DNA from: a virus
Lineage: Duplodnaviria; Heunggongvirae; Uroviricota; Caudoviricetes
Direction: 5' to 3' (one strand)
DNA: 64,000 nucleotides
IMG/VR virus record: IMGVR_UViG_2681813421_000002
Coordinates: 1 to 64,000 of that record
Part shown: positions 26,622-60,425 of the stretch, in pieces
Layout of the letters: every line of letters starts with the position of its first letter
Position numbering within the stretch: position 1 is the stretch's first letter
Made by a program: the position numbers and the translations under genes
Notes under the pieces: model-generated
Seen by the model: only the letters and a program-made list of their open reading frames with translations
Databases searched by the model: none
Told to the model about the DNA's origin: nothing

Positions 26622-26771
26622 AGGTCGATCTGTCAGGTATCGAAAGGAAGATTTTCGGGAGATTGTGATTTTGGATGAAGGAGGGGGAATTCATAAAATG
26701 CACTTGCGCACAGTGCAACAGTGCGCTATAGTTATGGCATTCGGTAATCATCACGGAGGATCAAATGACTA

Positions 26772-27074
26772 ATGACCAAAAAAATTAACATAAAGGATTT
26801 CAGGGATGCGTGGCTTGATGATTTTTTTGAATTTTCAACACCACATAGAAAGATACCTCCTGATATTCATATGACATTGTCACGGAAGTTGGACATTATC
26901 AATGCCGCAACTACCTGTAAGGATTTAAGATCACCACCAGGTAATCGGTATGAGGAACTGTCAGGGAAGCTAAATGGCTATTCATCAGTAAGGGTGAATA
27001 AGCAATATAGGTTAATTTTTAAGTGGGTTAACGGAAAGGCCGAGGACTTGTATCTCGACCCTCACAAATACTAA
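26772..27074 (+). CDS. higB: HigB-type toxin (plasmid killer protein family, RelE/ParE superfamily)
   Basis: C-terminal KDLRSPPGNRYEELSGKLNGYSSVRVNKQYRLIFKWVNG...DYH-like pattern characteristic of HigB killer proteins. Confidence 0.8.
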   Translation: MTKKINIKDFRDAWLDDFFEFSTPHRKIPPDIHMTLSRKLDIINAATTCKDLRSPPGNRYEELSGKLNGYSSVRVNKQYRLIFKWVNGKAEDLYLDPHKY

Positions 27075-27144
27075 AACAGATACCCGGTTACGGACCGGGT
27101 TCTGACCAGAGTCCACTTAATACGCACGCTAGTAAGGGCAAAAA

Positions 27145-27483
27145 ATGAAACAGGCAACCAGAAAACCGACGACCGTAGGTGATATCCTGCTGTACGAATA
27201 CCTGGAGCCGTTAGAGCTGAAGATCAACGAGTTAGCAGAAATACTTCATGTTCATCGTAACACCGTAAGTGCTCTTGTTAATAATAATCGTAAGCTAACG
27301 ATGGATATGGCATATCGCCTGGCAAAAGCATTCGATACTTCTGTAGATTTTTGGATTAATCTCCAGACCGCAGTAGACCTGTGGGAAGTCGAAAATGACA
27401 TGCGCGTTCAGGAAGAGTTAAGTCGTATCAATACTGCTGAAAAATTTATTTCTCAGCGGAACCTGAATAAAAAAGCAGCCTGA
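27145..27483 (+). CDS. higA: HigA antitoxin (XRE-family HTH)
   Basis: HTH LKINELAEILHVHRNTVSALVNN immediately downstream of higB; antidote-family architecture. Confidence 0.8.
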   Translation: MKQATRKPTTVGDILLYEYLEPLELKINELAEILHVHRNTVSALVNNNRKLTMDMAYRLAKAFDTSVDFWINLQTAVDLWEVENDMRVQEELSRINTAEKFISQRNLNKKAA

Positions 27484-27502
27484 TATAGTAAAACACATAC
27501 AA

Positions 27503-27529
27503 AAAGCCCACTTAACAAGTGGGCTTTCC
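27503..27529 (+). terminator. Hairpin after higA (candidate terminator)
   Basis: AAGCCCAC-ttaacaa-GTGGGCTT stem-loop followed by T-rich tract. Confidence 0.45.
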
Positions 27530-27899
27530 TTTGGAATTAATGAACATTAAAACTATCCGTACAGAACAAGATTATGAGGCCGCACTGCGTGCGGTAGAAC
27601 CGATGTTCGATAACGAACCGGAAACGAACACCCCGGAAGGTAATTTCTTGGAGGTTATGTGTCTTCTCATTGAGGAGTACGAGAAAAAACATTACCCAAT
27701 TGAGCCGCCATCACCTATTGAAGCCATTAAATCCCGTATGGAATAGCAAGGGTTGACCGTGAAGGATCTGGAACCGGCGATTGGTAAGTCAAATCGTGTT
27801 TACGAAGTGCTAAATGGGACACGAAATTTAACGTTACCTATGATTCGTCGTTTACATTCCCAGTTTGGCATTCCTCTTGAAAGCCTAGTTGGTGTTTAA
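27519..27899 (+). pseudogene. Orphan HigA/YgjM-type antitoxin interrupted by in-frame TAG at 27744-27746
   Basis: ORF 27519-27746 and the in-frame continuation 27747-27899 together resemble E. coli HigA(YgjM): N-terminal NIKTIRTEQDYEAAL domain and C-terminal HTH GLTVKDLEPAIGKSNRVYEVLNGTRNLTLPMIRRL; no partner toxin adjacent; start overlaps upstream terminator hairpin. Confidence 0.55.
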
Positions 27900-27959: not shown

Positions 27960-28700
27960 ATGAGCACTGATTCATCAATAGAAAAGGAAAATGAAAAATC
28001 ATCCGCCCAAAATCTGATAGAAGATGCTGTAAAAGATAAGTTGTTTAATAAGGTTTTTGCCTACATTTTTATTTCATTTTTAATTTCTAACTGGCGAGAT
28101 ATATTTATATTGTTGAAGTCAAAAGATGATGTTATGTATACATTATCTATGGTGTTTGTTGGGGAAAAGATTCCATTATTTGGGAATGTTTTTGTACCCT
28201 CATTCGTAGCTCATTTTGTCTTGCCTTTTATTTATGGTGTTGTGGCTTCAATATTAGCCCCAATGTTAACTTTACTAATTTCTATGGTGACTGGCACAAT
28301 ATACGCTAAATTGAGAGAGATAGATAAAATTGAAGACAAAAAAGAACAAGTAAGAAAAATTAACAGAGACATTAATGATCTTACTAAGAAACGGAAAGAC
28401 GTTGAAGAGCGTCTTGAAAAAGAAAAAGAAGAACATGAATCATTAAAAAGAAAGGTAGAAGAAGTTAGGGAACAGATTGAATGTGTGGATAGCGATATCC
28501 GTCATGTTATTAAATTATATAGAGAGAAAGGTGAGAGCTTAAATTCGTTGGATGATTTTTATGAATTTTTTACTGCCGTGAAAAACTCATCTTTTCGTTC
28601 GGGTGATACAAATGACAGGGAGACACTTGAGGAGATTCTCTCAAAGCTTTCTGATTCACTTGAAAAAATTAAATGCGATGCTAATAAAAAGGTGGGATAA
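27960..28700 (+). CDS. Membrane protein with C-terminal coiled-coil, AT-rich accessory gene
   Basis: 246 aa; 2-3 hydrophobic helices (residues about 30-110) then Lys/Glu-rich heptad region; gene visibly more AT-rich than surroundings. Confidence 0.55.
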   Translation: MSTDSSIEKENEKSSAQNLIEDAVKDKLFNKVFAYIFISFLISNWRDIFILLKSKDDVMYTLSMVFVGEKIPLFGNVFVPSFVAHFVLPFIYGVVASILAPMLTLLISMVTGTIYAKLREIDKIEDKKEQVRKINRDINDLTKKRKDVEERLEKEKEEHESLKRKVEEVREQIECVDSDIRHVIKLYREKGESLNSLDDFYEFFTAVKNSSFRSGDTNDRETLEEILSKLSDSLEKIKCDANKKVG

Positions 28701-30224: not shown

Positions 30225-30417
30225 AACAAAGCCTCTCAGTCATAACCTGGTGGAAACTGTATGCAGGGTGTGAAATGCGAGAAACAGACAGGCCACCAGT
30301 TCAGGGGGATGTGGTTCATAAATCCCCTCACTGGTGACAAGTGACTTTCATTAATCTTTATGCGGGGGCCAGCTTCATTTGCTGGCATTAGATTAAAAAT
30401 TAAACGGAGTGAATGAC

Positions 30418-30552
30418 ATGGATGTTATCTTCGAATTATTAATGCTAATTGATCTGTTTATGAACGCTTCATTGACCACGCAAATACTGGCGTCAATATT
30501 TTTGTTACTCTTCTACCTGGTATTGAGGGAGTTAACAAAGCTACTAATGTGA
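30418..30552 (+). CDS. Small hydrophobic protein (44 aa), candidate membrane toxin
   Basis: ATG at 30418 with GGAG RBS 8 nt upstream; product MDVIFELLMLIDLFMNASLTTQILASIFLLLFYLVLRELTKLLM is a single predicted TM helix; below ORF-track cutoff. Confidence 0.3.
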   Translation: MDVIFELLMLIDLFMNASLTTQILASIFLLLFYLVLRELTKLLM

Positions 30553-31206
30553 TCAAAGTATCACGGTATCTTCATCAACTTCTTTCCCAGCCAGTGACTT
30601 TGGCTGGGAGGTGCCTGCTTTAACTTTTTCATGCCCAATAATGGACAGGAACGAAGCGAGTATGCCTGTTTTTTGCTCTTTCTCGACTGTACCGATCATC
30701 TGCTCTACGTAATCCGCACTGGCAACGTTGTGGTATACGGTCGCGTAGCAACACAGGACCATCAGAATATGTTCCGGCCTGATATCCTGCCAGTTCACCC
30801 GGTAGACTTCTTCTCCGTTACCGTTGTATTCGGTGTCAACGATGGAGTCAGGGATTTCGAAAGCACCTTTGTTATTTTGCGGCAGGGATAATAGCTTCTG
30901 GAGTTTTAACTCTCTGTATCTTTCCATCCCGACGATGATTGCTGCTCTGCCATCGGCATGACGGGTCTTGAGAGTCACCTGGCTTGCTCCGGTGCCAGCG
31001 GAGATCGTTGGCGTTATTTCGTCTACCAGTACCTTAAATTTGCTTTTCCGCAGGGCTGCTATAGCTGGAGGAATTTTTTGCTTTTGCTCCAATGCTGACG
31101 CGGGAAGGGGTTTTACTTCGTTAATAATGAGAGCACCGTCTTTCAGTATTGCAGTGAGCATTTGAGGCTTGCTGGTGGTCAGGCTGAATATTGCGATCTT
31201 TTCCAT
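30553..31206 (-). CDS. Hypothetical protein
   Basis: Track ORF starts at GTG 31248; ATG at 31206 with GGAGGA RBS preferred; 217 aa; stop abuts the stop of the small hydrophobic ORF (convergent). Confidence 0.5.
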   Translation of the reverse strand: MEKIAIFSLTTSKPQMLTAILKDGALIINEVKPLPASALEQKQKIPPAIAALRKSKFKVLVDEITPTISAGTGASQVTLKTRHADGRAAIIVGMERYRELKLQKLLSLPQNNKGAFEIPDSIVDTEYNGNGEEVYRVNWQDIRPEHILMVLCCYATVYHNVASADYVEQMIGTVEKEQKTGILASFLSIIGHEKVKAGTSQPKSLAGKEVDEDTVIL

Positions 31207-58318: not shown

Positions 58319-58394
58319 TGGTGGCCCCTACCGGACTTGAACCGGTGACCGTGCGATTATGAGTCGCCAGCTCTAACCACTGAGCTAAAGGGCC
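58319..58394 (-). tRNA. tRNA with CAU anticodon, tRNA-Ile2 (lysidine)-like
   Basis: Cloverleaf with encoded CCA; resembles E. coli ileX as recalled. Confidence 0.85.
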
Positions 58395-58421
58395 GGATTA
58401 CTGCCAATTTTGCTTACGCTT

Positions 58422-59249
58422 TTATTTCACCGGAACAAACGGAACAGCGGCATTACTGGTCATATACTGCGGTAATGTACCGTTCCATTTGTTGATCGCT
58501 TCCAACTCCATAACACCGGGGTTCTGGCGCAGAGCTTCACCACGTAAACGAATGGCATCAGCTTCGGCCTGGGCTTTTGTGCGAATAGCATCAGCCTGTC
58601 CGGCAGCTTCCGCGCGCAGCATGTTGGCCTCTGCTTCACGTTGTTTGACCTCTTGCTCGCGTTGCAGGGTTTTTTGGTTTGCCGTAACTTTGGCGTTAAT
58701 ACTGTCAATAACTGTTGGCGGATATTCTGGCTTACCTACATAAGAGAGGCTCATCACCTGAATGCCGATTGGCGTCATTTCTTCCTGAATGTCTTTAAGG
58801 GCTGCATCAAGCAATTCAGATTTGCCACCGTCGATAAATTTGTCGGTGGTCATTTTGCTGGCTAACCGGTTCAGAGCATCTGCAACCTTCTGGCGTAGAT
58901 CGGTATCAGTAATATCATCTACACCTTTGCGATAGGTCTGAAATACCGTTGTGACTTTTGCTGGATCAACCTTGTAGGCTACGCCGATGTGGTAACCAAT
59001 GGTTGTTCCGTCGCTCATCTGGAAGCTGAACGGCTCATCGTATGTCTTCATTTGCTTAAAGGTCGGGAAGATATAAACTTCAGTATTCAAGCCTGTCCAG
59101 TAGCGACCAACACCAACTACTTCACCGATACCTTTATCATCCCCCAGCTTATTTACTTTGATCCCTACGTTACCTGGCTCTACCCGATCGCATCCGGTCA
59201 GACATAAAGAACCCAAAATAATCGCTGCACTAATCAACGTTTTTTTCAT
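58422..59249 (-). CDS. SPFH/band-7 (prohibitin-like) domain lipoprotein
   Basis: Lipoprotein signal peptide with lipobox LTGC; SPFH-like core followed by Ala/Glu/Gln-rich coiled-coil tail. Confidence 0.6.
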   Translation of the reverse strand: MKKTLISAAIILGSLCLTGCDRVEPGNVGIKVNKLGDDKGIGEVVGVGRYWTGLNTEVYIFPTFKQMKTYDEPFSFQMSDGTTIGYHIGVAYKVDPAKVTTVFQTYRKGVDDITDTDLRQKVADALNRLASKMTTDKFIDGGKSELLDAALKDIQEEMTPIGIQVMSLSYVGKPEYPPTVIDSINAKVTANQKTLQREQEVKQREAEANMLRAEAAGQADAIRTKAQAEADAIRLRGEALRQNPGVMELEAINKWNGTLPQYMTSNAAVPFVPVK

Positions 59250-59466
59250 TAATTAATTTCCTGGTTTTTTCACGAAAAAAGACTACTGCGAAAGCCGGGT
59301 AAATGAGCGCGAGAAGGACTCCCAACAATACAAGTATTGTGCTGTTAGATGAGATCATATTTGGCAAAAGCCAAACATACAGAACCAGTGACACAATCAA
59401 ACAGAGGACGGCATAAATATATAACCGCACCCATAGCGTTCGACATTTGTTCGGATTGTTCTGCAT
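59230..59466 (-). CDS. Small two-TM membrane protein, operon partner of SPFH lipoprotein
   Basis: 78 aa, two hydrophobic helices; overlaps SPFH start by 20 nt; GGAG RBS. Confidence 0.5.
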   Translation of the reverse strand: MQNNPNKCRTLWVRLYIYAVLCLIVSLVLYVWLLPNMISSNSTILVLLGVLLALIYPAFAVVFFREKTRKLINEKNVD

Positions 59467-59728
59467 CCTCTCACTCCATTATTTAACGAATAAAAAAGCT
59501 GCGGTGCCGGGTACCTCCCGGTGTCCTTTGGCTGGTTATCCACCGTGGACGGGGAAACAAGGAGAAATGAATGGACTGATATAACCATTTCCCCGCGTGC
59601 GCTTAGCCGCATTCACCGCAATGGTAAGAGCACTTGGCTGGCTGGGCGGCGATGACGCCTGTACGCATTTGGTGATCCGGTTCTGCTTCCGGCATTCGCT
59701 TAATTAGCCAAATACTCTTAACGTTGCA

Positions 59729-59815
59729 CTGGCGGAGAGTAATGGAATCGAACCATCATCGCTTGCGCAATGGGACGGTTTTCAAGACCGCTTGAGCACC
59801 ATGCTCCCTACTCTC
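59729..59815 (-). tRNA. tRNA-Ser (anticodon UGA)
   Basis: 87 nt, long variable arm, anticodon loop CUUGAAA, encoded CCA. Confidence 0.85.
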
Positions 59816-60188
59816 CCGTTATTGTGGCGACCGGTGCTGATCTCCGGCTTGCGGTTATTTCAGACTCTCACGGGCGTTTAATTGCCCCGCCGAACAGCTC
59901 TTTTCCGCAATAGCTGCAATGTCTTTCGCGCATCAGCCTGCGCATTCACCACAATGTTGAGAACACTGGTTGTCACGCTGCAACGCAACATTTATTCATA
60001 GATTGGGATATGACCCCGTTACGCCAGTGTTCTCAACGTTGTAGTGCCGGTTACGGTTCCGGCCAGGCCTCTTCCTCAACGGGGTGTTCTCCATACGGAC
60101 TACCGTTTATTGGTCGTTCCTGCGGTTTATGTTGTGAAGCCAGATGCTTATCTTCTGGTTGCTTCAAAGAGCTGCACTTCATCACAAC

Positions 60189-60262
60189 GGTAAGGGTACT
60201 TCGTAGGGATTCGAACCCTCTGCCAAGCACGGCGATCTCCGACGTCGCAAAATACCCTTACC
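60189..60262 (-). other. tRNA-like fragment (T-arm GGTTCGAATCC with 7-bp terminal pairing, no canonical D/anticodon arms)
   Basis: GGTAAGG...GAGGGTTCGAATCCCT...CCTTACC; fails cloverleaf, no CCA. Confidence 0.35.
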
Positions 60263-60270
60263 TGTTGTGT

Positions 60271-60347
60271 TGGTGCCGGTTAACGGACTCGAACCGCTGA
60301 CATCCTGCTTACAAGGCAGGCGCTCTACCAACTGAGCTAAACCGGCA
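60271..60347 (-). tRNA. tRNA-Thr (anticodon UGU)
   Basis: Cloverleaf with anticodon loop CUUGUAA and encoded CCA. Confidence 0.8.
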
Positions 60348-60348
60348 T

Positions 60349-60425
60349 TGGCGATGGTGGGTGGATTCGAACCACCGACCGACAGCTTAGAAGGCTGCTG
60401 CTCTATCCTACTGAGCTACACCATC
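60349..60425 (-). tRNA. tRNA-Arg (anticodon UCU, reads AGA)
   Basis: Anticodon loop CUUCUAA, T-loop GGTTCGAATCC, encoded CCA; 1 nt from tRNA-Thr. Confidence 0.85.

Follow-up and report, generated by a model that had tools for sequence, protein, structure and literature searches.

The toxin-antitoxin locus

Two neighbouring sets of toxin-antitoxin (TA) genes are found at the locus considered here, which lies in a 64,000-nucleotide (64 kb) stretch of viral DNA that will be referred to as the window. The first set is a higBA cassette of ~890 bp on the plus strand (26646..27535, with approximate boundaries), composed of a promoter region, higB, higA and a hairpin. The higB gene (26772..27074, plus strand) is intact and codes for a 100-aa toxin of the RelE/ParE superfamily, which matches PF05015 (HigB-like_toxin) over the complete profile (1-91 of 91, E 4.4e-35) and is identical to WP_000162415.1 of plasmid pGF60-C. 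It is followed by higA (27145..27483, plus strand), also intact, whose 112-aa antitoxin is identical to WP_000806445.1, carries an N-terminal HTH (HTH_3 at residues 16-70) and reaches 102.5 bits against TIGR02607 (antidote_HigA, E 7.9e-30), for which the cutoff is 47.7. With full-length matches to both families, a toxin-first order and two uninterrupted ORFs, the module is a HigBA of the PF05015/TIGR02607 kind (Rts1 or Proteus vulgaris type), which is represented in phage D6 by orf70/orf71. Proteins identical to these two occur in many D6-like plasmids, and previous work recognised the type as a means of post-segregational killing in D6-like prophages (PMC6799933). A GC-rich hairpin (27501..27529, unstranded) closes the cassette on its 3′ side; it has a 13-bp stem and an RNA fold of -15.7 kcal/mol (z = -3.9 against shuffles), and looks like a terminator.

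The second set consists of a single gene, an orphan antitoxin of YgjM/HigA type that we call higA2 (27540..27899, plus strand). Its ATG, at 27540, is located ~10 nt from the hairpin, and its frame is interrupted at codon 69 by an in-frame amber codon (TAG, 27744..27746, plus strand). This arrangement, i.e., an intact higB-higA pair, a hairpin and then a second antitoxin gene split by a TAG, is as the first-pass annotation had described it. That annotation also gave the downstream part as 51 codons long; it does stay in frame, but it contains 50 sense codons before the TAA at 27897-27899, and the count of 51 is only reached when the stop is included.

If a Gln is placed at the TAG, the resulting 119-aa product matches the solved structures of E. 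coli K-12 HigA/YgjM (5IFG_B and 5YCL_A; E 6e-9, residues 6-112) and is 95% identical to WP_021551809.1 of plasmid pTB423. The Pfam HTH_3 domain of this product is C-terminal (residues 63-115) and, therefore, the stop sits at the entrance of the DNA-binding domain. Thus, higA2 shows the homology to characterised HigA proteins, with an N-terminal domain followed by a C-terminal Xre HTH, that is expected of a HigA antitoxin, but it lacks the uninterrupted ORF of ~119 aa that its homologues have, and no cognate HigB lies directly upstream in the same operon, whereas sibling plasmids carry the toxin at this very site. The copy in pGF60-C has been annotated by PGAP/RefSeq as a “type II toxin-antitoxin system HigA family antitoxin”, in the form of a pseudogene with an “internal stop”. 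NCBIfam assigns no family to the orphan or to HigB2, the toxin found in those siblings (see below).

A variable cargo slot in a D6-like phage-plasmid

The segment has ~97% identity with Escherichia phage D6 and with ~109 D6-like plasmids, which are non-mobilizable, have sizes of 75-97 kb and come from E. coli, Salmonella and Shigella. Additionally, the flanking genes annotated in D6 are homologues of the P1 tail and baseplate genes 5, 6, 24, 7, 25 and 26. Taken together, the identity to D6 and the P1-homologue flanks show that the window is a D6-like (P1-family) phage-plasmid, in which the TA genes occupy a variable cargo slot between the homologues of genes 7 and 25. A close sibling is pGF60-C (NZ_CP172188.1), from chicken meat in Switzerland. 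A stretch of 111 nt around the TAG is 100% identical in both. Over 5.3 kb they differ by 28 mismatches, and further downstream their content is not the same; the window is, thus, a sibling of pGF60-C and a distinct record.

Other cargo is found nearby. Downstream of higA2, on the plus strand, there is a gene coding for a 246-aa protein (window 27960-28700; phrog_8191, function unassigned) that has transmembrane segments at its N-terminus as well as a long coiled coil, and for which searches of PADLOC and Pfam returned weak coiled-coil matches only. Its alleles are strongly divergent, with 89.6% nucleotide identity to that of pGF4-B and ~70% partial identity to D6 orf73. This gene was considered as the toxin partner of the orphan and rejected, as neither its presence nor its absence depends on that of the antitoxin, and complete higB2-higA2 modules are also found in front of it. 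For the same reasons, it is treated here as separate cargo, and it looks like an independent occupant of this tail-gene hotspot, which may be a gene for exclusion or of the abortive-infection type. In pGF60-C, a further pair formed by a RelE/ParE-type toxin and a HigA-family antitoxin is found 3′ of the gene-26 homologue (L004:5628-6111), at a position equivalent to ~30317-30800 of the window, where the content of the latter is different. This difference makes the place after the gene-26 homologue a second variable TA slot.

The amber codon and its distribution

Outside the haplotype of the window, codon 69 of higA2 is CAG. This is the case in 18/18 full-length alleles without the amber codon, in all of which the gene is one uninterrupted ORF of 119 aa; CAG alleles are found in D6 (orf72), CP031917, pF719-4, p98192, pTB423, pGF4-B, FDAARGOS_1059 and pLH50-c-C, as well as in 11 IMG/VR and metagenome loci. 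In a wider sample, formed by 119 homologues that are cluster representatives of a family with 4,526 matches at E <= 1e-10, the equivalent position is Gln in 118, and E. coli K-12 HigA likewise has Gln there. These three observations, i.e., the CAG of all other alleles, the nearly invariant Gln of the homologues and the Gln of K-12, indicate that the TAG is a derived C-to-T transition. The TAG is not conserved among homologues, and these, being single 119-aa ORFs, do not correspond to two naturally separate genes, an alternative that the first-pass annotation had named.

As the TAG is one base away from CAG, it could be suspected to be a sequencing or assembly error of this record. By contrast, the TAG was read in 10/10 independent loci, assembled by different projects (Logan, NCBI and ENA) from unrelated samples; pGF60-C and two ENA contigs have it as well. 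Downstream of the gene, three contexts are seen in these loci, in which the 246-aa gene is present, the 246-aa gene is missing or an IS is found, and the loci also have two different 3′ ends. An error is refuted by the independent assemblies, and its probability may be regarded as negligible. The exact 68-aa product is found in 42 blocks of the assembly collection, with at least 24 contigs read, and a cluster look-up recovers it in 28 contigs, including those of KGT11642.1 and KGT21831.1. One of the carriers of the amber allele (L013:3613-4821) has an IS transposase gene (DDE_Tnp_1) just 3′ of the orphan, and its gene calls differ there from the intact 246-aa gene.

A 119-aa protein with Gln (P0125) gave the impression that this very haplotype had an intact ancestor with CAG. 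It was discarded, as the DNA of both contigs from which it comes reads TAG and the entry is, consequently, a gene-caller artefact. These 119-aa entries with Gln-69 belong to two short ENA contigs (L032:268-627 and L033:145-504), where the gene caller evidently used a TAG-to-Gln code, and they constitute a trap when “intact” alleles are sought by protein look-up. The amber haplotype has never been seen with CAG and is known only with the stop.

It might also be thought that the full 119-aa protein is still made, because of amber suppression, programmed read-through or a phage code that translates TAG as Gln; the first of these had been one of the three initial readings of the gene. Suppressors of the supE type insert Gln, which is precisely the residue lost at codon 69, and the TAG-C context, said to be a weak terminator, is that of the orphan stop. 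The use of TAG as Q by the gene caller on the two short contigs would point in the same direction, but these entries are the calling artefacts described above. Furthermore, TAG terminates 4 of the 50 long ORFs of the window, and the substitutions that accompany it in its lineage, missense changes included, resemble those of a neutrally evolving sequence (see below), while the other alleles keep CAG at this codon. The tRNA genes of the window do not help either: the cluster found on its minus strand (58319-60425) comprises Met-cat, Ser-tga, Thr-tgt and Arg-tct, none of which has a CUA anticodon or would read UAG. A D6-like plasmid with four tRNA genes has been described (PMC6799933). We consider that the production of the full-length protein by any of these routes is highly improbable.

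Origin of the orphan gene

The first-pass annotation had proposed, as another of its readings, that higA2 is a recent pseudogene left by a lost TA pair, and had noted that no cognate toxin is adjacent. Both statements stand. A tblastn search of the whole 64 kb window finds no YgjN-type toxin (best E 0.49), and the partner that has apparently been lost, is a HigB toxin of the PF09907 family that siblings of the pTB423 type still have at this site. In pTB423 (NZ_CP034790.1), the slot contains a complete two-gene module, formed by the toxin WP_021551810.1 (HigB2, YgjN-type, 100 aa; PF09907 HigB_toxin, E 3e-34) and, 4 nt later, the 119-aa antitoxin WP_021551809.1. A search of 5,426 complete E. coli genomes gave complete higB2 modules on 19 plasmids and no higB2 on the chromosomes, and in PLSDB such modules are found on 24 plasmids. 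The same antitoxin protein is also found without its toxin, after a PF05015/TIGR02607 pair, in pF719-4 and others, and one nucleotide haplotype occurs both with and without the toxin (L026 as compared with L027/L028). Regarding GF60, the host of the sibling pGF60-C, megablast matches to the toxin were obtained on 19 plasmids only, none of them from GF60, in a search that a toxin of less than ~85% identity would escape.

The junctions are visible in a three-way alignment. The homology of the window, or of pF719-4, to pTB423 ends after ...CAGGTATCGA (~26645) and restarts a few bases 5′ of the antitoxin ATG at 27540. This gap suggests that the toxin gene and its promoter were exchanged for the self-contained ~890 bp higBA cassette. 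The PF05015 toxin of that cassette and the toxin that higA2 would have lost are unrelated in sequence; the first module represents the incoming cassette rather than the partner of the orphan.

The exchange would also have removed the expression signals of the old module. The pTB423 module has a promoter (-35 TTTACA, -10 TATACT) with two TCCCA-N3-TGGGA palindromes (L005:968-1012). No copy of these operator-like palindromes is found anywhere in the window, and no promoter-like site was found on the plus strand between the hairpin and the orphan ATG. Additionally, the GGAG that precedes the antitoxin ATG in pTB423 is replaced in the window by TGGAA, a poorer Shine-Dalgarno sequence. That the toxin was lost rather than gained is suggested by the pairing of toxin and antitoxin across the family and by the missing promoter and expression signals of the orphan.

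The higB2-higA2 module also occurs at another place. In pLH50-c-C (L031:2016-3740), a pair 86% identical to that of pTB423 is flanked by the c1 repressor region and by a site-specific integrase, and a gene of the TnpB family is also found in the vicinity. These two locations show that the module moves from one site to another.

Signs of decay in the orphan gene

The substitutions found in the TAG haplotype are those expected of a gene under little constraint. When compared with seven other alleles, it has 8 private substitutions, of which 6 are nonsynonymous (P5T, M29T, D35N, F37L, F65S and Q69*) and 2 synonymous, while the other alleles show 11 nonsynonymous to 54 synonymous changes (Fisher p = 0.0015, in a test that rests on just those 8 substitutions). 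The corresponding dN/dS is ~0.85 on the TAG branch and ~0.06 among the other alleles, the former being indistinguishable from neutrality (binomial p = 0.69). Furthermore, four of the residues affected (P5, D35, F37 and F65) are shared by 109-118 of the 119 homologues (92-99%). Part of the TAG haplotype could, in any case, be a recombination import from an unsampled allele.

The amber codon is not the only lesion found in this gene. In 71 PLSDB plasmids, the orphan is truncated at its 3′ side, its second half being replaced by unrelated sequence after ~codon 59; the 66-aa product of this form is found on at least 1000 contigs and has its own PHROG (phrog_10398). The truncation is an independent destruction of the orphan by another route. 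Full-length orphans are found in only ~12 PLSDB plasmids. On the other hand, intact orphans are common, the D6-type protein being present on 899 contigs and, therefore, the orphan is not lost quickly. Its persistence could be due to some residual function or merely to clonal spread. Among intact alleles, singletons amount to 3 nonsynonymous and 1 synonymous in the orphan context and to 0 and 3, respectively, in close alleles with a cognate context. Although suggestive of relaxed constraint among intact orphans, these numbers are too small for such a claim.

Comparison with known systems

As in E. coli K-12 HigB/HigA (YgjN/YgjM) and Salmonella SehA/SehB, the orphan combines an N-terminal toxin-binding and dimerisation domain with a C-terminal HTH, and its homologue in sibling plasmids follows a PF09907 HigB in the toxin-first order of both systems. 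The sibling promoter, with its two palindromes around TTTACA and TATACT, also resembles the operator layout reported for SehAB. By contrast, the window has neither the toxin nor this promoter and its operators, and codon 69 interrupts its antitoxin ORF. As the match to K-12 HigA is a distant one (E 6e-9), neutralisation of the chromosomal K-12 HigB by the orphan seems unlikely.

A relationship with the PD-lambda-2 anti-phage defence system is also apparent. The sibling toxin matches the PADLOC profile PD-Lambda-2_A (E 1e-41), and an intact antitoxin allele matches positions 1-119 of the 402 of PD-Lambda-2_B (E 6.7e-43). In PD-lambda-2, however, the B component joins a HigA-like domain to a C-terminal peptidase, and a third component, C, is required (Vassallo et al. 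2022, PMC9519451). The 119-aa protein has no peptidase part and the A homologue is absent from the window; as judged from these profiles, the orphan is related to PD-lambda-2 but is no member of it. The plain two-gene HigBA of D6-like plasmids (L005:1045-1710) is a close relative of the TA core of PD-lambda-2.

A further comparison is that with orphan antitoxins proposed to work as anti-addiction modules (PMC7354431), such as the chromosomal CcdA of Erwinia chrysanthemi, which acts against the CcdB of the F plasmid. Like them, higA2 is a lone gene, here on a mobile element, and its cognate toxin is carried by competitors of the same host range, namely the 19 E. coli and 24 PLSDB plasmids with higB2. 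It may be argued that the 68-aa amber fragment, like the 66-aa one, is a functional mini-antitoxin that protects against the HigB2 of incompatible pTB423-type phage-plasmids, an activity for which DNA binding would be unneeded. The N-terminal domain of HigA is responsible, in E. coli and Shigella, for homodimerisation and toxin binding, while DNA is bound by the C-terminal domain (PMC7160566), and both fragments retain approximately the first 60 residues; the 68-aa one is still recognised by the PD-Lambda-2_B profile (E 1.7e-20). The HigB2-bearing siblings do share niches with plasmids of this kind, as Swiss chicken meat was the source of both pGF4-B and pGF60-C. Nevertheless, no promoter-like site was found for such a fragment, its Shine-Dalgarno sequence is poor and the hairpin lies ~10 nt upstream. 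Additionally, the five missense changes of the amber haplotype all fall in the N-terminal domain itself, four of them at near-invariant residues, which argues against conserved toxin binding, and the amber allele is rare (28 contigs, as compared with at least 1000 for other forms). A mini-antitoxin is, consequently, an unlikely explanation of the amber allele.

This idea could be taken one step further by assuming that HigA2 is kept as a weapon between incompatible siblings, neutralising the HigB2 left behind by a displaced pTB423-type plasmid, with the 68-aa and 66-aa fragments being enough for this purpose and the loss of the HTH representing a streamlining of the protein. We find this version quite improbable. 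An anti-addiction role, which was the third reading of the first-pass annotation, is conceivable for intact orphan alleles. The case for it is weak in the amber allele, given the missing promoter-like site, the loss of the native operators, the hairpin in front of the gene and the lack of the HTH domain in its product. An anti-addiction antitoxin would be intact, expressed and under purifying selection, while the gene of the window is interrupted by a stop, the search for a promoter-like site between the hairpin and its ATG found none, and the ratio of nonsynonymous to synonymous changes is 6:2, as opposed to 11:54 in the other alleles. Given the interrupted ORF, the expression signals that were not found and the relaxed constraint, the gene fits better in the class of degraded remnants.

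A proposed history and its meaning

The gene anatomy, the cassette junctions, the distribution of alleles and the substitution pattern observed at this locus are best explained, with a probability that we would put at around 0.85, by a real but ordinary pseudogene, i.e., a leftover antitoxin whose own toxin gene was swapped for another TA pair and that later suffered a CAG-to-TAG nonsense mutation. According to this model, the ancestral cargo of the slot would have been a canonical module of two genes, the first for a YgjN-type HigB toxin (PF09907) and the second, 4 nt downstream, for a YgjM-type HigA antitoxin of 119 aa, whose N-terminal domain serves toxin binding and dimerisation and whose C-terminal part is an Xre HTH. 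Recombination would then have exchanged the toxin gene, the promoter and the palindromic operators for an unrelated and self-contained higBA cassette, bringing with it the PF05015 toxin, the TIGR02607 antitoxin and the hairpin. The old antitoxin gene would have been orphaned in this way, without toxin, promoter-like site or operator. Since nothing would be left for it to neutralise or regulate, the orphan would have come under relaxed selection and started to decay, most relatives having ended up without its 3′ half. In the lineage of the window, decay would have taken the form of five missense changes and the C-to-T transition that turned Gln-69 (CAG) into an amber codon. The orphan is, thus, probably neither expressed nor functional; it could still be transcribed by read-through of the hairpin.

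On its own, the orphan matters little, as it is a case of routine gene decay; the feature is ordinary, and the sibling copy is already a RefSeq pseudogene. Its value, a modest one, is that of a clean and dated example of how an orphan antitoxin may originate by replacement of the toxin and the promoter at a phage-plasmid cargo hotspot, with the replaced segment bounded on one side by the antitoxin gene. In D6-like elements, orphans in intact, truncated and amber form co-circulate with the intact pair and, therefore, this family is a convenient natural system in which to ask whether orphan antitoxins ever act as anti-addiction factors.
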